A stretch of 64,000 bases of DNA from an uncultured Nitrososphaeraceae archaeon (GCA_963825865.1 CAWGVG010000036.1:32001-96000); one strand, 5' to 3'; shown: positions 1 through 10,970, numbered from the stretch's first letter. Numbers and translations: made by a program. Notes: a model not told the origin generated them from the letters alone.

Positions 1-720
1 ATAAGAGTATATCAGAAACCTACAGGACAATACTACTATTATTACTACTCTGTCAAATGATCGTTTAATACAATTGTATGACTCACAAAGAATATCCGAA
101 AGCAATCAAACACATGTTAGGATGCTCATCATCATCATCGTGATGAATCCGCTTATATTAGTGAGTTATACGATGGTGAATTCTCGATCTCATCTGACAA
201 GTGTCAATCTGCATATTATTGTAAAATCTACTTATTTCGACGCCTCTAAATCTTTCATAATAAAATTCTATAACAAAAATATATCACGGTCCTAATCTAT
301 CTATATTACATCCTGATAATACATTATTATATAATATTAATTATACAGTTACATCGAGATAATTTGGTCACAAGAATTAATGGCCGAGTAAAGGAATAAT
401 CTTTGCTATTGACAAAATCTAGTCCGATCTTCTAACAAAAGAATTGTTAACAAATTTGCTAGTAACAGACCATTATAAAACAAGATATCATTCAAATTAG
501 CAAAACTCGGTGCCAGTCTTGTAAGAAAAATTCGATAGTCATACAAGCAATTAGTTGTGATGTCATTGCTCATATTTAGAAATCTTATGCCTTTAATGAT
601 GTAATTTTCTTATGGAGACAATATTGATCAGGCGTATGTCGAGTACAACCATGCATATGGGAGCAATGCCGACATAGGTCACAATAAATGACCTTTCGAA
701 ATTTTTCAGTATTGGACCCA

Positions 721-1452
721 CTACATAGAGTTACGAGCTATAGCATATGACCTATCTTTAAAATTGCTCCTAGGACGCAGCTTCACAAAAATATCGTAAG
801 TTGCAGAATAATGATAGTAAGTGCCATTTTTAGCCTCAAAATAAATCTGATAAGGTTCATCCGAAGCTTGTAGTTCTCTTATGAGAATCCAATAACCATC
901 AGTCACAGCCTCGAAATAACTGGCTTTGAGCGCTTCCTCCCATTTATCTTTGAGAGGGCTCTTGTCTGATACAACTATTTTGAATAATTGAGATTCTACA
1001 CGATAATCTTTAAGGTTATTTACGATTGGTTCAGTATTTTCGTTGCCGATCTTGATGTACGAACCAATCTCCCAGCCACTATCGATGTCTTTTCTAGCAT
1101 AGTAGCGTAATTCTCCCTCAGTTTGCAATAATTTCTTTTTATCTTCTGGATTTTTGCACCCTGTCAGGAAATTTGCTTCTACCACCGGGAAGAAAATAGC
1201 AGTTTCCTCATAGATTTCAATTCTTTTATCGCCTGTTCTGTCATAATGTGTAGTGGTATTTTCTCTATATCCATTTTCTCGACCTTCAACTGGCAAATAA
1301 TCAACATTGGCTCGTAAAAAAATTATCGGATCATTTTTTGAATAACTATCTGGATCACTGGAAAGCACCCATTTCAACCATTCAGACGCCCATTCTCCAT
1401 AGGATCTGCCCCTAAAATTTTCATTAGGAGGAACTATATCGAGTTTTTTCAT
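721..1452 (-). CDS. Uncharacterised Trp-rich protein, paralogue 1 (most divergent, no signal peptide)
   Basis: Intact 243-aa ORF with YGEWASEWLKWVLS, AIFFPVV, YRVESQLF, AVTDGYWILI and terminal TYDIFV motifs, shared with three other ORFs in 2678-8503. Confidence 0.8.
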   Translation of the reverse strand: MKKLDIVPPNENFRGRSYGEWASEWLKWVLSSDPDSYSKNDPIIFLRANVDYLPVEGRENGYRENTTTHYDRTGDKRIEIYEETAIFFPVVEANFLTGCKNPEDKKKLLQTEGELRYYARKDIDSGWEIGSYIKIGNENTEPIVNNLKDYRVESQLFKIVVSDKSPLKDKWEEALKASYFEAVTDGYWILIRELQASDEPYQIYFEAKNGTYYHYSATYDIFVKLRPRSNFKDRSYAIARNSM

Positions 1453-1902
1453 AAAAAAAAAACTTTAATATGTCTTAATAAAGTTATACTTGTAGTGATT
1501 TTCTTCCAGGTCGATATGCGTTGAACATTTCTTATCGGTGTTAATTATCGAATCATTGATTGTGAAAAATAATGCTACGAGTTCATATGGAAAACGGATG
1601 CTTCACTTGTGATAAAAACTCGAATTGGTTCTAGGTCTTCAGAAGCTTTTGGAAAGTGACTTATACGATTGGAATCACCATATGTGGCATTTTAAACCAA
1701 TTACCTTTTTCATACTGGTATAACATTTTTTTATGATTTGATCCTGGCAACTACCGATCCAGAAGAAAAGCTGTTATTTCAAAATCTCTAGTTAAATAAT
1801 AACATAGGCATTAAAATGAAGGTTTTTAAAATTAGATGTAACCAATGTTAAGCGACATACATTTATAGTCGATCGAATAGTAGTAATTGGGTTTAGTACT
1901 AG

Positions 1903-2460
1903 TTGGGTGAACAAGCAAACGAGCTATTAATAAAAGGAAAGGAAGCTTACAATAAAGGTAATTACAAGGATGCTGAGCAGTACTATAAAAAAGCAATAGA
2001 GGATCCGGATCAGTATTATAAAAGATGTGCTTTAATTAATTTGAATGTTCTTTATGGAGAAGGAAGCCACGAATTTTCCAAATCTGTAGAAGTAAATCGA
2101 AAGCTATTAGAAATTGACGACAGTTCGGAGGCTAAGACAAATCTGGCAGAAAGTCTATTAAGGGATAGAAAGTATGAAGAAGCACGAAAGTATGCGTTAG
2201 ATGTTGTGAATGCGCCTAAACATACTATTGGTGAACGTGACGATACTGATATGTTATACCCTGATCATCTAGATGATAAAGGCTATAAAACCGTTAACAC
2301 ATTATTCACTTTGTGTTCATACTTATTGGAGGAAAATAATAACTTTAAAATTCCTGATGAAAAATGGCTATTTGTAGGACTAGCCAAATCGATAAATGAC
2401 AGCAATGCAAGTGACAAAACAAAAAAAGCATTACTTGCTGTTATAGATTCATTTAAATAA
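1903..2460 (+). CDS. Tetratricopeptide-repeat protein
   Basis: TPR-like helices KGKEAYNKGNYKDAEQYYKKAIE and AKTNLAESLLRDRKYEEARKYA. Confidence 0.7.
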   Translation: MGEQANELLIKGKEAYNKGNYKDAEQYYKKAIEDPDQYYKRCALINLNVLYGEGSHEFSKSVEVNRKLLEIDDSSEAKTNLAESLLRDRKYEEARKYALDVVNAPKHTIGERDDTDMLYPDHLDDKGYKTVNTLFTLCSYLLEENNNFKIPDEKWLFVGLAKSINDSNASDKTKKALLAVIDSFK

Positions 2461-2677
2461 ATATCAAATGAGTAAGCAATTAGAGAAGCTGATTCTCTTA
2501 TAACAGTATAGATGTTTAGGACTAAGGAAGTTAATATATGCTAATCTAAAGCTATTGTTATAAAACTAATTTGTCAGAACAATCAGTATTGCTTTACAAT
2601 ACCCAATCAGATGATATATTACATAACTGCTAACAGTGACTTCACATACATAGCCTAAGAGACATAATAGTGAAGGT

Positions 2678-3293
2678 TTAGCATTTTACTATTAGCTCTA
2701 TATTCACATCAATCTGAATCCTGCCAGATAAACATGAACTGGATGTCCTAATATTGTGTTTTCCTGGAGATAAAGGCTTAAAAAAGATCCAGTAGCCGTC
2801 TCCCACCCCTCTAGTTGACCCGTCTTTGACTCCATAAATGTTATTTGCCAGGAAAGGAAAAATCAAATGGCGGAGATTGCACCCGATGCTTTTCTGAAAT
2901 GAGCAAACTAGCACCGTCAATGTTAGCCTCTTTTTTTACAATATCATCAATATTGGATTTAGCATGTAAAATCATTTCATCCTCAGTTTTCAAACTAGGG
3001 TCTTCAGAATAAGATGTAGTGAAATTTATAACTGGAAATAATACTGCTTTTCCAGCAGGAATAGTAATAGTACGTTCAACCTTTCGAGCAATTGTGCCTG
3101 CCAGAAACAACACATTAGGATCTTCTTGGTTAATAGCCCACCTTTCACCAGTATCATCATAGGCTGGGTGATTTTTTTTTGGTATAGAAAGAAACCATTG
3201 CCACCACCTAGTTGTCCACTCCTGGCATGACTTATCAAAAGGTTTTTCATATAGGCTATACATTGTGGGTATGCTATTATCATTGTCAGTCAT
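2678..3293 (-). CDS. Uncharacterised Trp-rich protein, paralogue 2 (one frameshift)
   Basis: ORF 2841-3293 (EWTTRWWQWFLSIP, LFLAGT, IPAGKAVLFPVIN) continues in ORF 2678-2920 (NNIYGV, GVGDGYWIFFKPLSPGKHNI). Confidence 0.8.
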
Positions 3294-3545
3294 AGTTTAC
3301 CTCTCTACAAGAATAATAGTAGGTATTTTTGAACCGGCACGTTTTCGTCAATTGCATGTATTGTCATAAAGTTAGCCTAGTTATAAGCTCGATCTTTTTA
3401 ATTTCATTATCTTTGTAAAAGACACAACTTCCAGTAAATATTTTAGTTTTTAGTGCTTTATGAAACAATCCGCAAGAATAAACTTAAGCAATCTGGTAGT
3501 TGCCATTAATTGTTAAGAATAAGCAACCCTAGGTACAAATTAAAA

Positions 3546-4201
3546 TCATGATTGAGGCTTTATAGTTATGTGATACGTTACTTCTGTCTCAAAGTGTGGT
3601 TCAATACCATGGAAGTTTATTGTGTGATCTCCGTTGTTAAAAGGTTCAAAGAACACCCAGAAGCCATCAGATGAGCCTTCGTAGATCCAGCTCTAATATT
3701 CCAAACATTATTTTCCGGTAACGATAAGTCAAAAGGTCCAAACTGAATACGGTATTTGTCTAAATCATGCAGTTCCAACCCATCAATAGTTGCTTCAAGA
3801 ACACTCCAATGAACAATATCCTTCGCAGTATGGGAAATTAATTCTTCATCTGTTTTAATAGATGGTACTTCAGAATATGAGAATTGTGAAACAATTAAAG
3901 GAAATAAAATAGCCTTTTCACTTGGAATAATGCATTTACGTTCCGCCCAATGCATCTTGCCAGTTGTTCCAGCTAGGAACCATACAGGACCATTTTGCCC
4001 TTCAGCACATTTTTCACCGGTACTGTCAACAAGTGGATTATGATCTTTTGGAATTGATAAAGCCCACTGCCACCATTTAGCAGTCCATTCACCATATGGC
4101 AATCCATAAGGTTTAGAGTCTATTGGAAAAAGTTTTGGTGTGCAAACTGCATGTCTTGGCATTGAAGTTTTATCTGAATCTTCAGAAGTAAGTTCAGTCA
4201 T
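3546..4201 (-). CDS. Uncharacterised Trp-rich protein, paralogue 3 (one frameshift)
   Basis: YGEWTAKWWQWALSIP, GPVWFLAGTTG; the C-terminus reads in another frame as SDGFWVFFEPFNNGDHTINFHGIEPHFETEVTYHITIKPQS, stop at 3546-3548. Confidence 0.8.
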
Positions 4202-4399
4202 AAAATAAAACCTCCTTCTTCAAAGTCTTTAAGTCGTTGTTATTTTCCAAATCAGCTTACATTGTAATAAAGTACCTTATATCTAATTTGAGATACCAAA
4301 TTACCAGAAAAAACTCTAGGAAGTCTTCTGCAATAAGATTATGCCTGGGGTAATATAGACCAATAAGATAATTATAACTCTTCTTTCCAATATATCCTA

Positions 4400-5903
4400 A
4401 TGCAGATGTCAAAGAATAGCATTAGATTAGCAAAATTGATAAGAATCTATTCATATTTGTATGATAAATTGTTCAAGTCATCTTCACCATTATCATCATT
4501 ACATCTTAAGAGTAGAAATAAATATACTACAAATAATGGTAGTGCATCAACAAGAATAAAATCTGTGGAGGATACACTCACTGAAATTATTCCACTCTGT
4601 AAAAAAATTGGTGTAACAAGAATTTCAGATATAACGTATATGGACAAGTTGTATATACCTAACTATACTGCAATATTACCTGGCACAGAAGACTCAATAT
4701 GGGTTTATAGTGGAAAGGGACCAACAAAAGCACATGCCAAAGCAAGTGCATTAATGGAAGCAATAGAAAGATATTCTTCTCTTATCTAGTAATTATTCTA
4801 AAAGTTTTATTCAAGGAACTTATTTGCAGTTATCAAAATCATACAATAAAGTATTGCATCCTGATGAAGTAGTAGAACCTGTTAATCAGGCATATAATGA
4901 CAGAGATTCTATTATGGATTTCTTGCCAGGATTTGATTTACTAACTAATGAAAAGGTTTTGGTTCCAGCGCAGACTTGCATTATCCAAATATTCTGCAAA
5001 ACCTCCAGCTATCTGTGCATTTCCATATTCTCATACAAATGGACTTGCATCTGGCAATGTATTGGAGGAAGCTATATGTCATGCATTATGTGAAGTTATT
5101 GAAAGAGATGCATCAAGTATAGCTGATTTATGTGCATCTTCTATACCATATAGCTATCTTAGAAAAAATAAAAAATTCATTAAAAAAAGCAGAGAATGGC
5201 GAATATCCATGTCACTCAAATTCCTGCTGAAGATAAATTTGTAGACGATTCAAGTATTTTTCCAGATGTTGATATTTCTGAAATTGCAGAGGAGTTTGAG
5301 CCCATTAAATTTTTAGTCAAAAGATTTAGTGATGCTGGCATCCCTTTATTGATAAAAAATATAACACAAAAAGATATTGGCATTCCTACATTTGTTGCAA
5401 GCAGTATTGAATGGATAACCAGTAATTATGGATATTTCGCTAAAGGTTATGGAACACATCCTGATGCTAGAATTGCTTTAATACGCGCAATAACAGAAGT
5501 TTCACAAACAAGGGCAGGTAATATTCAAGGTGCAAGAGATGATTTAAAAAAAATACAATATAAAGAAAATGAGGAGATATACAAAAGAAAATGGCAATTT
5601 ATGCCTGCATCATCGTCATTGACTAGAAAAAATAACGGCAAAACTATTAAATTTTCCAAGATTAAAACGTATCTAAACAAAGATATATTAGATGATATCA
5701 AACTTATTTTAAATCGTTTAAAGAAGGCTGGATTAAAAAGAGCAATAATCGTTGATTTAACTAATCCTAATGTTGGAATACCAGTTGTAAGAGCAATAGT
5801 GCCAGGGCTTGAAACTTTTGAGGTTGCAAAATTATTTATGGGTAACAAAGCATTTATGGGTAGAAGAGCAAAAAAGCATTTTATGAGGATCTTGCGTTAT
5901 TGA
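4400..5903 (+). CDS. ycaO: YcaO-family ATP-dependent enzyme, TfuA-associated type, split by frameshifts
   Basis: Consecutive ORFs give [95 protein letters not shown]. Confidence 0.9.
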
Positions 5904-6055
5904 CAAATGACCGCATTACTATGAAGATTAATGAAAAATTAAAATCTGGTTCCCACCTGCTTATCAAAATCAGCTTCTAATTAAAAAGAGCGTAACATTC
6001 AAAATCTAGAAATGAAAAATTAACCAACTACACAGGTAAAATTTACCTATGTAGA

Positions 6056-6178
6056 TTAGTTATGCCCAAGCTCTTCTGTCACATTTCCAGGTGTTCTTAA
6101 TATGAGCGTTTTGTCAATAAAATCGATTGATGCTCTGCGGTTGATTAATGCTCTTAATGTTGCAACTGTTTTACGCAT
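6056..6178 (-). CDS. Small 40-aa ORF, candidate peptide (MRKTVATLRALINRRASIDFIDKTLILRTPGNVTEELGHN)
   Basis: Clean ATG-TAA ORF read by hand; AT-rich TATA-like AAAACTCTTATTAA about 20-35 nt upstream; convergent with YcaO. Confidence 0.45.
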   Translation of the reverse strand: MRKTVATLRALINRRASIDFIDKTLILRTPGNVTEELGHN

Positions 6179-6366
6179 GATACATATTCCATTATTGCAA
6201 TTAATAAGAGTTTTGGAAACTAAATTTTGTCGCTAGCAAAAGATCGCTCCTATTCTTAGGCCATTAATTCTTGCTACTTAACATAATTATAATCAAAGCT
6301 ATCAGCAGAATTGATTATTCAAGTTCCAATCATCTATAGATCAGGATCGTCTAATCTGTTGTTTTT

Positions 6367-7710
6367 TTATCTTCCTTCTTTTTTCACTTCTCTTATTACA
6401 AAGTCTACATATTTTTTCAATTCCTTTTCATCCAATTCTACTGGTTGCTCTGTTTCTATCTCTAATCTGGCTTTGTCCTGATCAATTTGTTTGACAGTTT
6501 TTTCAATTTCTTTCTCCATTTCTGCATGTCCTATTATGCCTAATAACTTTGATTCTAAGGCATGTTTGTGTATAGATTTACGCAATTCATTATTTGCTGA
6601 AACAAGTGTTGCTGAATTGTAGATTCCTAACAACATCAAAAATGCTGTTATAATCAAAACCGTTATTGTTGCAAGCCCGAAAGGAGGATAGGGGGCAAGA
6701 GTTTGTACCACAGCCTGATCTGCACCAAATATTAAGAATATTCCCCAGCCAGAGATAATCATGTATGTCTTTAAATTTTTCTCATAACTTATGATTTTAG
6801 ATATCTTCCAGAACGCGACTGCAAAGGTCAACCCTCCAATAGGTTTACTTAACGATAGAAACGTTGTCAATATGATGGAAACAGTAATAGGATCAATTGT
6901 TAGATACGAAATCATTATATCGGCGAAGATAAACTTGTAAAGGTAGTTTACTATAAAATAAATAAGTGGTATAGATAATATAATCCAGTAGGCTATGGCA
7001 TTAATTAATTTTTCTTTGTAAGAATTCATTAATAAGGCTGTTGTAATCCATATGCTAATAAATGACATAATAGAAGATATTGTGTAAATATTATCCAAAA
7101 ATACATATCTACCAAAAGATATGTCTACAGTGCCACCGATAAATTCTCGTGCCTCATCTGATCTGTCATTTACCTTGACAGTTGTAATAATAGCTGTCAC
7201 GACCAAGTTAGAAGCTATTAGTGACATTGATATAAAATACAGAAAAACTATCGAATTATGATTTGATCTGTACCAAGAAATGAACAGCATAGATAACCTT
7301 GTTATAAAACCTGCTGCTGTCCCATAACTTATAATAATGATGAAAATTGGGATTAATTCTTCATAGTAGTTATTATAGAAGAGCTGAAATATCAAGAATC
7401 CCATCAAGATCCCTGATACAAATAGCGAAATTAACGAAATTCTATACAACAGATTAACGTTTAACCTTTTATTTAATCGATCTCTTTTAAATGAGCTTTG
7501 TATGTACTTAATTATAACAAATTCTAAAAGTAGACACAACGAGGTATTTGCGATAAATAATATGAGCTTGCTTTGTTGAGTAATAAAAGATTTATTAACG
7601 AGATCGTAAACCTTAACAATAGAAGTGTCGATTACTAAGGTAACAATCAAACCAATCATAATACAGAGAAATTTTTTATAGTTAAAGGAATTTTCGTATT
7701 CTTGGAGCAA
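6367..7710 (-). CDS. Polytopic membrane protein with charged cytoplasmic C-terminal tail
   Basis: 447 aa, roughly 10-12 hydrophobic segments followed by a helical charged tail (ELRKSIHKHALESKLLGIIGHAEMEKEIE); divergent from the secreted paralogue with a 48-bp gap. Confidence 0.8.
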   Translation of the reverse strand: MLQEYENSFNYKKFLCIMIGLIVTLVIDTSIVKVYDLVNKSFITQQSKLILFIANTSLCLLLEFVIIKYIQSSFKRDRLNKRLNVNLLYRISLISLFVSGILMGFLIFQLFYNNYYEELIPIFIIIISYGTAAGFITRLSMLFISWYRSNHNSIVFLYFISMSLIASNLVVTAIITTVKVNDRSDEAREFIGGTVDISFGRYVFLDNIYTISSIMSFISIWITTALLMNSYKEKLINAIAYWIILSIPLIYFIVNYLYKFIFADIMISYLTIDPITVSIILTTFLSLSKPIGGLTFAVAFWKISKIISYEKNLKTYMIISGWGIFLIFGADQAVVQTLAPYPPFGLATITVLIITAFLMLLGIYNSATLVSANNELRKSIHKHALESKLLGIIGHAEMEKEIEKTVKQIDQDKARLEIETEQPVELDEKELKKYVDFVIREVKKEGR

Positions 7711-7758
7711 CTTTGATTAATAAAAATCAAGCTTAAAGATAATCCTTTTGTATTAGAA

Positions 7759-8503
7759 GTGTATTTTGGATATAGATTGAGGAAAATAGTAGGTTGTTTT
7801 ATTGCAATTTCTGTCTTGTATGCATTATTACTCCTGTCATCTGCAATGTCGTCATTTGCTGCTTATGCTGCAGTTACTAATTTAGTAAATATTTTTCCAC
7901 CAGATAGCAAGCCATATGGCTTATCGTATGAAGAACATATCAAAAACTTCTGGAGATGGGTGATATCACTCCCAAAAGACAAGAGTCCTTGGAATGATGC
8001 GACGGGAGCGAACTGCGATAACGGGCAATCAAAGACAAATTCATCAGTTTTTTACCTAAGTGGTAATGGAGGAGGTACATCTGATAGAACATGCAAAGTC
8101 CCAGCTGGGAAAGGTCTATTTATACCAGTTTCACCAATGGAGATTTCTGACAAGGAGGCTCCAAATAAATCAGTAGAGGATTTACACAAAATCTCAAAGA
8201 AAGATCAGGACAGTGTTACAAGCCTGTATCTTAAAATAAATGACAAGGAGTATAGCCGTGCAAGATCTTAGCAAGTATAGAACACATACAGGTGTTTTTG
8301 ATGTGACCTTTCCTAAAAATGCAATTTTCGGAGCTACTGAAGGCACTTCTAAAGCTGTAGCTGATGGTTATTACGTAATAACCCAACCGCTTGCAAAAGG
8401 CACCTACACCATTCCGTACAAATCAAGTTTGATATGTCCAGGAACAGATTGTCTGCAGCCTAATTTTGCCCAAGATGTAAAATATACCATAATTGTACAA
8501 TAG
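7759..8503 (+). CDS. Uncharacterised Trp-rich protein, paralogue 4, secreted (one frameshift)
   Basis: Hydrophobic signal peptide ending AAYA, then YGLSYEEHIKNFWRWVISLP, VFYLSG, RTCKVPAGKGLFIP; continues in 8240-8503 with YRTHT, AVADGYYVITQPL, VKYTIIV. Confidence 0.8.
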
Positions 8504-8670
8504 ATATAATTATATTATATTCCTCATAAGAGAAGTTTTTCGTCAATGTGTCATTTATTTAGGCTATTCCCCGTCTTGACGACTACTTTCTCTTTTTTAT
8601 GATTCTATTTCTTCTTGTATTAAATGTGCAGTATGTTGTTATCGTTATAGTTGTTGGCTATGTTTTTTGA

Positions 8671-9402
8671 TTAGAAAGTAACACACTGAAACCAGCCCCT
8701 AGCGATTCGAGCTACCTCTTCAAGCGTACCTGGCTCTTCGAATAGATGCGTTGCTCCAGGGATAACTACGAGCTTCTTCTTTTCTACCTCCTGCAAATGC
8801 TTCAACGCATCTTTATTCAAGTCAATTACATTGGTATCATTCTCTCCTACAATGAAGAGAGTTGGCGCTTTGACATTTTTCAAAGCTTGTGATCCAGCCA
8901 GGTCAGGGCGTCCGCCCCGTGAGACAATAGCGCTGATAGTATTGGCACGTTCTGCTCCTGCAATCAATGCTGCTGCAGCGCCAGTGCTAGCACCAAAGTA
9001 TCCAACAATAAGATTTTGAGTATCAGCTTGCTGTGCAATCCAGTCCGTGGCTGTAATCAACCTTTTGGCAAGCAGCGCGATATTAAATCGATGTTGACGA
9101 GTTACGAGATCCTCCTTTTCCTCTTCAACCGTAAGAAGATCAATGAGTAGTGTCGCAAGACCAGCATCTTGTAAAACTCGTGCAACGTATTGATTCCGAG
9201 GGCTATGCCGACTGCTTCCACTTCCGTGAGAAAATACGACTATTCCTTCTGCTCCGACCGGTATGGTCAAATGTCCTTCAAGTGTTGCTGCTGATGATGG
9301 TGTTGTCGTTATTACTGTTTCTATTGCAGTAGAAGCAGGTTCGTATCCGTCGACCGATATTCTAACTATAGCCTCACGACTTTTTTCTCGTCGTTCAATC
9401 AT
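8671..9402 (-). CDS. Dienelactone-hydrolase-like alpha/beta hydrolase
   Basis: FSHGSGSSRHSPRN, nucleophile elbow GYFGASTG, VSRGGRPDLA, IPGATHLFEEPG. Confidence 0.85.
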   Translation of the reverse strand: MIERREKSREAIVRISVDGYEPASTAIETVITTTPSSAATLEGHLTIPVGAEGIVVFSHGSGSSRHSPRNQYVARVLQDAGLATLLIDLLTVEEEKEDLVTRQHRFNIALLAKRLITATDWIAQQADTQNLIVGYFGASTGAAAALIAGAERANTISAIVSRGGRPDLAGSQALKNVKAPTLFIVGENDTNVIDLNKDALKHLQEVEKKKLVVIPGATHLFEEPGTLEEVARIARGWFQCVTF

Positions 9403-9471
9403 GAATTATATTACATCATTCCCTTTGCTTGCCATACTTATCTATATCTCTTCAAACTCTCAACTCTTAGG

Positions 9472-9710
9472 TTGATCTTTGCTAATTTTCAGGCTGTCAA
9501 CTTTCGGTTGAGCACCCAAAAAGATCAATCCTTTGGTAGCATTCAACGCTTCCTTTGCAGTAATTGCAAGCGAACCTTTTCTGTCAATATTGGCTTTGAA
9601 AAAATGAAGCATAATCCTCAAGCTGTTACTACAGCTATGCAACTATACTTCAGCGGTGAGTCTTTATGAAATACTCAAAGTTTATCAGGTTATTGGGTGT
9701 TCAAGTATCA
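9472..9710 (+). pseudogene. Transposase remnant (IS1/IS6-like Zn-ribbon and HTH region)
   Basis: IQRFLCSNCKRTFSVNIGFEKMK...AMQLYFSGESL, truncated. Confidence 0.6.
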
Positions 9711-10129
9711 TTTATGCAGGATGTTATGCACACAATCTGACAAATCTTGCAGGTTGGTTTACAGGCTTCTGATAAAGAGAAAGGAAACAATTGGTCTCTG
9801 TTGGTGACCACAAAGAGTTTATGGAAGGGACTAATCAACACTCATCAACCGAAAGTTGACAAGGTATTCATAACAACAAATCAACCGTAGAGACGACAGA
9901 GCCCTTCAAAGTAGTATTAAAATACGTAAAAATATGTATGTAGCAATGAACAAAACTTTTTCGGTTGTTAATCGACTGTAAGAACGAGTAAATTGGCTTA
10001 ACTCTCTCTCTAATATACACAATAATAAAGGACAGCTGAATCCAACCTAGAATTGATTTATTTAATTACCCAAATACTTTCTTTCTAGACACTGTTATAT
10101 TGTTATTATATAGATTAAAAATCATTTTC

Positions 10130-10970
10130 AGAACTCATCTGGAAAGTAATTTGATATATTACTCTAGATTCTCTCACTTGCTTACCTATAGCTTAGATCA
10201 TGTTTAATTCGTGCTAGTGAGATTCGAAGAGCTAACGGATGATCAGTGGAAGCTGTTAGTATCATCAATTCCAGTTCTTGTATGTCCTGCTGAGTGGATG
10301 TAGATGGATGGATATGCCTCCAACGTATGGCTCTTACAAAACAGTTTGGGAACGACACAAGAAGTGGAGTATCAAAGGCGTATGGAAAAATATTATGAAT
10401 TCCATGATATCACGTGGCTATACTTCTGGATTGATAAACATAGACGACCTATCTGTAGATAGTAGCATGTAGCAGCCAAGAAAGGGGGCAAGAAATAGGT
10501 TTTGATGGTCATAAGAGGATGAAGGGAAGCAAGATACATGTAGCAGTAACACCGAGATCTTTACCAATAGTAACAGGTTTGGGACCAGGAAACGAGCATG
10601 AAAGTAGAAAGCTCATTCCCCTTCTGAATGACATACAAATTAGGAATAACAATGGAAGACCCAAGAACAGACCAGAACGTATCTGGGCTGATACCAAGTA
10701 CCATACATTTCTAGTACTGACATACCTTTACAACAGACGTATTAGAGCCCAAATAAGAGAAAGGAGTAATACCAAACCAAAACAGGGTAGACCAAATATT
10801 TTCCTGTACCAGGACTATAGGAAAGTCAGAAGTAGTGTAGAAAGATTCTTTGGATGGCTCAAGAGCTTTAGACGAATCCAGACACGATATGAAAGATTAG
10901 CATCAACCTATCTAGGATTTATTCAACTTGGCTGTATAATGATACTAATGAGACTTTTCAGATGAGTTCT
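10130..10970 (+). mobile_element. IS5-family insertion sequence with 18-bp imperfect terminal inverted repeats
   Basis: Left AGAACTCATCTGGAAAGT (10130-10147) against the reverse complement of ACTTTTCAGATGAGTTCT (10953-10970), 17/18 match, enclosing a transposase. Confidence 0.85.
10217..10965 (+). pseudogene. IS5-family transposase, fragmented
   Basis: VRFEELTDDQW, YVLLSGCRWMDMP, GSKIHVAV, IWADTKY, VERFFGWLKSFRRIQTRYER; frameshifts and an apparent N-terminal internal deletion. Confidence 0.85.

Follow-up and report, generated by a model that had tools for sequence, protein, structure and literature searches.

A TfuA-less YcaO paralogue and a conserved small-peptide gene in a candidate peptide-modification cluster of soil Nitrososphaeraceae

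Soil nitrification is driven by ammonia-oxidising archaea. Among the systems described around YcaO enzymes, the closest to the locus analysed here are the methanogen YcaO-TfuA system acting on McrA, a methyl-coenzyme M reductase (MCR) subunit (family TIGR03266), the bacterial thioamitides and thiovarsolins, in which YcaO and TfuA accompany a short precursor, and the YcaO of E. coli, which has no TfuA partner. According to the parts of the articles available to us, the E. coli enzyme makes a backbone thioamide on the ribosomal protein uL16 (PMC13063428), the YcaOs of ammonia-oxidising archaea were placed in the McrA-thioamidation clade (Nayak 2017, PMC5589413), eight TfuA-related clusters were counted in Thaumarchaeota (Malit 2021, PMC8120280), and a survey of archaeal kinases lists the known membrane sensor domains (Galperin 2018, PMC5847659). 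We analysed a 64,000-nt stretch of DNA from an uncultured Nitrososphaeraceae archaeon (GCA_963825865.1, CAWGVG010000036.1:32001-96000; hereafter the window), in which a YcaO gene without an adjacent TfuA stands together with a gene for a 40-residue peptide, four paralogues of a Trp-rich family and a polytopic membrane protein.

Comparison of 20 loci with this type of YcaO showed that the paralogue clade travels with a gene of 39-40 residues, at least two cytoplasmic Trp-rich proteins and usually a secreted Trp-rich protein paired with a membrane protein of 10 transmembrane (TM) helices. With moderate confidence, we read this as a conserved, undescribed cluster of soil Nitrososphaeraceae that resembles clusters for RiPPs (peptides synthesised ribosomally and modified post-translationally). 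The peptide would be modified by YcaO, the Trp-rich proteins would bind, the sensor pair would sense, and the breaks in the reading frames would be errors. The window contains the following features:

721-1452, minus strand: Trp-rich protein pA, intact, 243 residues, no signal peptide, the most divergent of the four members
1903-2460, plus strand: TPR protein, from the listing of open reading frames (ORFs)
2678-3293, minus strand: Trp-rich protein pB, no signal peptide, two frames with a break near 2850
3546-4201, minus strand: Trp-rich protein pC, no signal peptide, divergent from YcaO, two frames with a break near 3673
4400-5903, plus strand: YcaO paralogue, TfuA-less, methanogenesis-marker-1-like, in four frame segments
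6056-6178, minus strand: 40-codon gene for a candidate precursor peptide, translation MRKTVATLRALINRRASIDFIDKTLILRTPGNVTEELGHN, convergent with YcaO
6367-7710, minus strand: 447-residue polytopic membrane protein, a stand-alone copy of a putative sensor module
7759-8503, plus strand: Trp-rich protein pD with an N-terminal signal or anchor, two frames with a break near 8260

All of these except the peptide gene had been named in an earlier, sequence-only reading of this DNA, and ORF listing together with profile searches found every feature of that inventory in place: the YcaO, the four Trp-rich paralogues, the 447-residue membrane protein and the TPR protein. As that reading had also described, three Trp-rich copies lack a signal peptide, and the N-terminus of pD is hydrophobic; its start lies 48 bp from that of the membrane protein gene, with the two genes head-to-head.

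Fragments of the window YcaO matched PF02624 at 29.1 and 115.7 bits (cut-off 25.7). An intact ortholog reached 213.7 bits over profile positions 1-325, and the score of the ortholog against TIGR00702, 189 bits, was likewise above the cut-off (75.65). An intact 472-residue ortholog is present in locus L027. The source genome (G000; ~5 Mb, 81.8% complete) encodes a second, intact YcaO on contig C60, directly followed by TfuA, and this housekeeping copy is ~58% identical to the window YcaO. YcaO was present in 230 of 238 Nitrososphaeraceae genomes. The second, higher-scoring type occurred in 17 of the 238, distributed over 8 genera and in some genomes with 2-4 copies. Members of this type matched the paralogue of genome G011 at 515-698 bits. 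The lowest-scoring member (G190) is cut by the end of its contig; its placement in the tree put it with this type. The tallies include 11 unpublished genomes (G114, G115, G116, G117, G156, G157, G183, G184, G235, G236 and G250), all of them without the paralogue and without the peptide; only the denominators and the figure of 230 depend on them. In a tree of 48 YcaO rows (quick search, LG+G4; a distant actinobacterial outgroup and the window's own broken copy were excluded), 19 paralogue rows were separated from 29 housekeeping rows by one split with an SH-aLRT of 100. The base was unresolved in an earlier tree that included the actinobacterial outgroup. A search of a contig library with the G011 YcaO returned 5 loci, 2 of them relevant. 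These comparisons identify the window YcaO as an extra, TfuA-less paralogue.

The assignment to the thioamide class made in the sequence-only reading stands in part. The best NCBIfam match of both paralogue and housekeeping YcaO was TIGR03266 (McrA-glycine thioamidation protein), and both copies share with the methanogen McrA system the IQGARDD motif, a second motif and the lack of a PxPxP tail. The scores, 246.7-266.3 bits for three paralogues and 279.6 bits for the housekeeping copy, fell below the 365-bit cut-off of this model, however, and TfuA is not adjacent. The paralogues further differ from the methanogen system by specific inserts, of ~10-15 residues after WQFMP and of QK, and by their partner, a 39-residue peptide instead of a large enzyme subunit. 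The MCR alpha subunit (PF02249) had no match in G000 at its 81.8% completeness, while methanogen control genomes matched, in line with the absence of MCR expected in ammonia-oxidising archaea. The azoline-type model SagD/TOMM (TIGR03604) scored 129.6-160 bits, under its cut-off of 219.25, and neither an E1-like nor an Ocin-ThiF partner was found among the gene families common to the 20 paralogue loci. NF040716, the E. coli YcaO type, matched at only 34-49 bits. The E. coli system resembles the window in having a YcaO without a TfuA partner; it differs in that its enzyme is distant, its target is an essential protein in folded form, and no neighbouring genes are dedicated to it. Among the many Glu/Asp columns invariant in 20 sequences, candidates for the acidic ATP/Mg-binding residues, are E97, E100, E199, E200, E208, E211 and D213 (L027 numbering). 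An alignment of the YcaO sequences (A5) contains 96 invariant columns; judged by these, by the best match to TIGR03266 and by the presence of TfuA in trans, the enzyme looks active and thioamide-like. The window contains no TfuA, as had been noted before, and the genome-wide search placed the sole TfuA of G000 on contig C60, beside the intact second YcaO. Because TfuA is encoded elsewhere in the genome, its supply in trans, and with it thioamidation, is possible.

The small gene at 6056-6178 was absent from the sequence-only reading and was exposed when all ORFs of the 20 loci with 30 codons or more were clustered. It was detected in 18 of them, always tail-to-tail with YcaO at a gap of 54-284 bp, and two further contigs of genome G052 hold the same YcaO-peptide pair. 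The start codon is ATG at the same position in 16 of the 18 copies and apparently GTG in the other two, and the stop codon directly follows G-H-(N/Q) in all of them. Pairwise differences by codon position were 0.33/0.26/0.62, the third position varying most. With a hidden Markov model (HMM) of the peptide, we found a single copy in the whole of G000 and none at the housekeeping YcaO-TfuA loci. Across the 238 genomes the peptide occurs in 17, of which 15 carry the YcaO paralogue, and G244 and G245 each contain two paralogues and two peptide copies. Exceptions to this pairing are G042, which has no peptide, G190, in which the contig ends at YcaO, and G208, with a broken fragment only. Among the 20 loci, the two without a detected peptide are L072 and L084, the contig of the latter ending at YcaO. 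M1, K3, P30, G31, T34 and H39 are invariant in 105 peptide sequences. No Pfam or NCBIfam model matches the peptide, and its 229 clusters in a collection of 5.8 billion proteins, mostly of 39 residues, are all unnamed or 'hypothetical'.

A short gene that adjoins and co-occurs with the modifying enzyme is the arrangement looked for in RiPP clusters, and the gene at 6056-6178 is on these grounds a candidate for the precursor peptide. As in the bacterial thioamitides and thiovarsolins, a YcaO of the thioamide lineage stands beside a short conserved ORF and accessory genes. The bacterial clusters differ in that here the cluster has no TfuA, the precursor is matched by neither Pfam nor NCBIfam, conserved genes for a protease, a transporter or a tailoring enzyme are lacking, and the accessory genes fall into two families without Pfam models. 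The modified peptide proposed in the sequence-only reading has thus gained a concrete gene. Its export, by contrast, is unsupported, because neither an exporter nor a protease is conserved among the gene families of the 20 paralogue loci. Complex prediction for YcaO (A5) and the peptide (A6), run without controls, gave 0.00, 0.53 and 0.22, a median of 0.22 against a mark of 0.32, which weighs neither way on binding.

Several further observations concern the peptide gene. G052 carries four separate YcaO-peptide pairs on contigs C412, C458, C152 and C544 (L079, L080, L111 and L112), which suggests a recent multiplication of the module. On contig C89 of G231 (L109), the peptide (8278-8418, minus strand) lies near a Trp-rich gene (8921-9544, plus strand) with no YcaO in the 8 kb on its usual side; the YcaO of this genome is the housekeeping copy only. 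Directly past the stop codon of the window peptide, an inverted repeat at 6020-6055 (CTACATAGGTAAA...TTTACCTGTGTAG) is followed by a T-rich run and could be a terminator common to the two convergent genes.

The surroundings of YcaO were compared by a six-frame scan with custom HMMs in 20 paralogue loci (18 fetched loci, contig C39 of G011 and the window) and at four housekeeping loci. Trp-rich genes were found at 19/20 paralogue and 0/4 housekeeping loci and the membrane protein at 13/20 and 0/4, some of the paralogue loci without it being short contigs. The distribution of TfuA is the reverse, 0/20 and 4/4. Gene order and orientation around YcaO vary among the paralogue loci. In G011 all genes are intact, in the order pB(-), pC(-), YcaO(+), pA(+), pD(+), with a membrane/Trp-rich pair upstream. 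The linkage of YcaO to the Trp-rich family and the membrane protein that the sequence-only reading had proposed is therefore conserved despite rearrangement, and the association is not due to chance, because the same families flank orthologous YcaO genes in 19/20 loci from 8 genera. The TPR protein, which had been counted as part of the cluster, was found in the window but in none of the 19 other paralogue loci (0/4 housekeeping loci), and was rejected as a member of the system.

The four Trp-rich proteins are members of a single family, and an HMM derived from intact relatives matched at 724-1464(-), 2681-3296(-), 3549-4219(-) and 7717-8500(+) with E values of 1e-10 to 1e-64, the last three in two frames. 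Its consensus, PxGxxYxEWxxxWWxWxxSxP ... VxFL ... IPxGKxILxPV ... YR ... AxxDGYW, corresponds to the motifs that had been picked out by the sequence-only reading. The profile also connects pA (E 1.4e-64) to pB, pC and pD, which tblastn at 1e-4 does not. The 61 homologues of pA are all 'hypothetical'; its ortholog beside the G011 YcaO is 77% identical, and intact orthologs of pB (202 residues, L027:7748-8356) and pC (206 residues, L027:8490-9110) are available. No Pfam or NCBIfam model matches the Trp-rich proteins. In a protein atlas pA matched unnamed Nitrososphaerota clusters only, and pC had no match among the named clusters. The AlphaFold2 model of pA (predicted local distance difference test, pLDDT, 90.7) is mostly beta, with an N-terminal helix on a beta-sandwich. 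Foldseek against PDB gave a best E of 2e-3 at a TM-score of ~0.2, and thus no close solved relative; the best hit of a VIA wide search (Z 5.7, root-mean-square deviation (rmsd) 3.1, 84 aligned) was generic Ig-like; and the A4 profile against PDB sequences returned a chance match alone (E 0.38).

A profile of 35 members found 8,848 representatives in 1.84 billion proteins (1,708 of them at E 1e-30), and a single protein can hold as many as six copies of the domain in tandem. Although a homologue search for longer forms of pC gave none, fusions surfaced in this profile search. Nine long representatives were scanned, and seven contained other domains while two contained none; the partners are Phytase-like + Big_7; HYR + Ig; Ig, HYR and DUF6242; GDSL lipase; DyP peroxidase; EAD8; and dCache_1, which representative P0154 matched at 38 bits, below the cut-off of that model. 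Because of this pattern of fusions and tandem copies, a role of the Trp-rich domain as a portable binding or adhesion module would suit the data. The DyP fusion is representative P0191. Elsewhere in G000, C5:17680-19413(-) encodes a 577-residue secreted protein with a Trp-rich domain, of which a fragmented near-copy lies on C15; the region after the domain presumably resembles Cache, which we base on an R/DxWY motif, and P0154 is a similar protein.

The AlphaFold2 model of the 447-residue membrane protein (pLDDT 77.3) has ~10 TM helices and a cytoplasmic helical tail of ~70 residues. Neither Pfam, including HisKA_7TM, nor NCBIfam matches it, and it contains no HisKA or HATPase_c domain. In relatives, at least 18 open frames, 931-1,071 residues long, carry the same module at their N-terminus, and both long forms that were scanned, L105:906-3953 (G001) and L106:26-3160 (G002), end in HisKA+HATPase_c. 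Because the module heads such histidine kinases, we predict that the membrane protein is an input module of a sensor and in this cluster lacks the kinase: it shares the input module of the kinases and is itself none. Of the two roles proposed in the sequence-only reading, export or sensing of a peptide, sensing would fit this module; no exporter is conserved in the cluster. Foldseek gave a best E of 0.19, and VIA a best Z of 11.1 (rmsd 4.4, 232 aligned; Ste2, adhesion G-protein-coupled receptors and rhodopsins), which is below the bar of ~13 for helical bundles. The arrangement is reminiscent of two-part extracytoplasmic sensors and HisKA_7TM-type modules in its long forms with HisKA+HATPase_c, its divergently transcribed secreted partner and its alignment to 7TM proteins at Z up to 11.1; it differs in having no Pfam match, in a Z of 11 that lies under the helical-bundle bar, and in the helical tail of ~70 residues that replaces the kinase. 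Further membrane protein genes paired divergently with a gene for a secreted Trp-rich protein lie on C6, C7, C9, C57 and C46 of G000. Stand-alone ORFs at C9:10401-10955(-) and C24:28361-28579(-), receiver-domain-like by eye (DDxPD-type motifs), adjoin two other membrane/Trp-rich pairs.

Six frame breaks interrupt the locus, three in YcaO and one each in pB, pC and pD. YcaO runs through frames 2, 3, 1 and 3, with changes at ~4782, ~4974 and 5160-5195, the last lying in A-runs. We consider these breaks most likely to be errors of the consensus or assembly and not decay, because conserved genes are split genome-wide and because indels in other sequencing runs reopen the frames at five of the six sites. 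To obtain the genome-wide rate, 184 long ORFs from 400 kb of the complete relative G014 were compared with G000, and the 109 with a best match of at least 45% identity were retained. At least one frame change split 30 of these 109 conserved genes; the 44 changes found over 116.6 kb amount to 0.38 per kb, a lower bound.

For the second line of evidence, Logan contigs of four runs (X1-X4; soil or wetland, from four studies) were aligned to window positions 600-8600, where they cover five of the six breaks and leave 5160-5195 in YcaO uncovered. Differences of one base from the window were seen at 2850 (X4), 3673 (X3), 4974 (X3) and 8260 (X1). The X4 contig is without one base at 2850, and its removal extends the pB frame from 151 to 205 residues; an extra C behind 3673 in X3, when inserted, extends pC from 200 to 224; and removal of the base that X1 is without at 8260 extends pD from 184 to 261. 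The X2 and X3 contigs stop aligning at 8262/8263 within pD. At ~4782 the end of an X1 contig is one base shorter than the window, and removal of one base each at ~4782 and 4974 leaves the N-terminal part of YcaO open for 291 residues. Every coding indel from the other runs sits at a frame break, and the remaining three (1723, 1786 and 3379) are intergenic. The contig over 4810-5043 is only ~94% identical to the window, and the indel-bearing contigs each have a depth below 5, so that such differences may themselves be errors.

The sequence-only reading had named real YcaO frameshifts in a decaying locus as one of two outcomes that would overturn it, and the result went against decay. A locus decaying in G000, with genuine breaks that make pseudogenes of YcaO, pB, pC and pD, appears very improbable to us. 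Such decay would fit the density of six breaks in ~6.3 kb of coding sequence (~1 per kb, or ~2.5 times the genome-wide lower bound), the position of two YcaO breaks outside homopolymers, and the truncated duplicates of these families on C46, C57 and C34 in a genome with insertion-sequence genes. It is opposed by the split state of conserved, presumably essential genes, including the TfuA on C60 (154166-154673), which is also read in three frames; by near-identical contigs from four other runs, whose one-base changes at five of the six sites each reopen the frame; by the restriction of their coding indels to the breaks; and by the lack of in-frame stops or deletions besides the shifts. Genome-wide frame errors probably explain the 81.8% completeness of this 5-Mb genome, and at ~0.4 frame errors per kb apparent pseudogenes in G000 are not to be taken at face value.

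Besides the low depth of these contigs, the local excess of frame breaks and the lack of a conserved exporter or protease, several comparisons weigh against the RiPP-like reading. The TIGR03266 scores of 247-280 bits are short of the cut-off. The Trp-rich family was found in 17/24 and the membrane family in 23/24 Nitrososphaeraceae genomes sampled (16 genomes from the order's other families yielded neither), and both are far commoner than the YcaO paralogue with its 17/238. About ten Trp-rich/membrane loci in G000 are without YcaO, from which we conclude that the two families have their own function. The Trp-rich copies adjoining YcaO are mostly non-orthologous between loci (21-56% identical to those of G011). 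In locus L070, 7.3 kb contain no Trp-rich gene (its contig of 9.9 kb ends 1.1 kb past YcaO), L072 is a paralogue locus without the peptide gene, and in G231 the contig with the peptide and a Trp-rich gene lacks YcaO.

The wide distribution of both families, their YcaO-free loci, the non-orthologous neighbours and L070 would all be accommodated if the YcaO-peptide pair were functional and the neighbours were bystanders, kept by descent from one Trp-rich/sensor locus with an unrelated role such as environmental sensing; moreover, the paralogues all derive from one split, so the 20 loci are not independent. We regard this as unlikely, albeit with an appreciable chance of being correct, since gene order and orientation change and yet Trp-rich genes stay within a few kb of YcaO in 19/20 loci, whereas with ~10 loci in 5 Mb a random 10-kb stretch would hold a Trp-rich gene only a few percent of the time. 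In addition, pA-type proteins are restricted to 13/238 genomes, 8 of which carry the paralogue, and the G231 peptide keeps its Trp-rich neighbour even without YcaO.

The Trp-rich proteins could instead be the substrates of YcaO, as thioamidated folded proteins, with the 40-residue protein as an accessory subunit or regulator. According to the available portions of the respective articles, the closest relatives among the characterised YcaOs have a protein, McrA, as their substrate (PMC5589413), and the TfuA-less E. coli YcaO recognises folded uL16 (PMC13063428); diversifying paralogues beside a modifying enzyme are a pattern known for substrates too. We nevertheless judge this quite improbable: the family mostly occurs without the paralogue YcaO, it is the small peptide and not the Trp-rich genes that tracks the paralogue almost one-to-one (15/17 genomes, and two with two in G244 and G245), and in 35 Trp-rich sequences one Gly is invariant and one more Gly and a Tyr nearly so, which leaves no conserved target motif evident.

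Under the favoured RiPP-like reading, YcaO would use ATP for the activation of an amide in the backbone of the small peptide, probably in its invariant C-terminal part, T-P-G-(D/E)-x-T...H-(N/Q). The likeliest product would be a thioamide, given the nearest relatives of the enzyme, its sulfur supplied by sulfide or by the TfuA encoded elsewhere; an azoline at an invariant Thr or Ser, or an amidine, could be other products. The Trp-rich proteins may bind either the peptide or the product made from it; the cytoplasmic copies would act inside the cell, and the secreted copy together with the membrane module may form a sensor outside the cell. In a more speculative version, which we think rather unlikely, the YcaO-modified and probably thioamidated 39-residue peptide would act outside or between cells, as a signal or as a copper-binding, chalkophore-like compound with a two-part receptor; the chalkophore-like option is raised because a thioamide would be combined with the invariant His. 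The receptor would then consist of the secreted Trp-rich protein and the 10-TM module shared with histidine kinases, and the cytoplasmic Trp-rich paralogues might be chaperones or immunity proteins. If this were true, these archaea would have their first system of communication or metal acquisition based on a peptide, and the Trp-rich family, with 8,848 representative clusters and no Pfam model, would gain a function.

In the available parts of the literature on archaeal YcaO and RiPP clusters, the second YcaO, the peptide and these families are unmentioned, although supplementary tables (PMC8120280, PMC12144867) may list the cluster; nor do those parts assign a product, substrate or role to any YcaO of ammonia-oxidising archaea. 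One enzyme, one 39-residue peptide, ATP and sulfide would make a cheap test, the result of which could reveal the first modified peptide of the group. Three families, the peptide, the Trp-rich domain and the 10-TM sensor module, are without a match in the Pfam copy searched. Mining rules that demand an adjacent TfuA would miss such clusters, because TfuA lies outside them.

Two additional gene types were noted in the paralogue loci. A DyP-type peroxidase gene is present in 5/20 (L071:3832-5142, L075:14968-16605, L081:5641-6984, L082:5607-6938 and L084:2713-3135; Pfam Dyp_perox_C was checked on two of the five). A gene with a PF00156 phosphoribosyltransferase domain is present in 6/20 (L070:6101-6820, L071:7798-8508, L074, L077, L079 and L082; PF00156 was checked on two), and in G000 such a gene at C46:39731-40418 adjoins a Trp-rich fragment. 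Beyond pD, the window encodes a dienelactone-hydrolase-type alpha/beta hydrolase at 8671-9402(-) (PF01738, 28.8 bits), in a stretch with a GC content of 0.40-0.42 compared with ~0.33 around it; the hydrolase was not found in the other paralogue loci. The right border of the cluster, at 9472-10965(+), is formed by ORFs that by eye resemble insertion-sequence transposase genes, and a similar transposase-like ORF at C46:28292-29308 in G000 adjoins a partial duplicate of the membrane/pD pair that is 75-77% identical.

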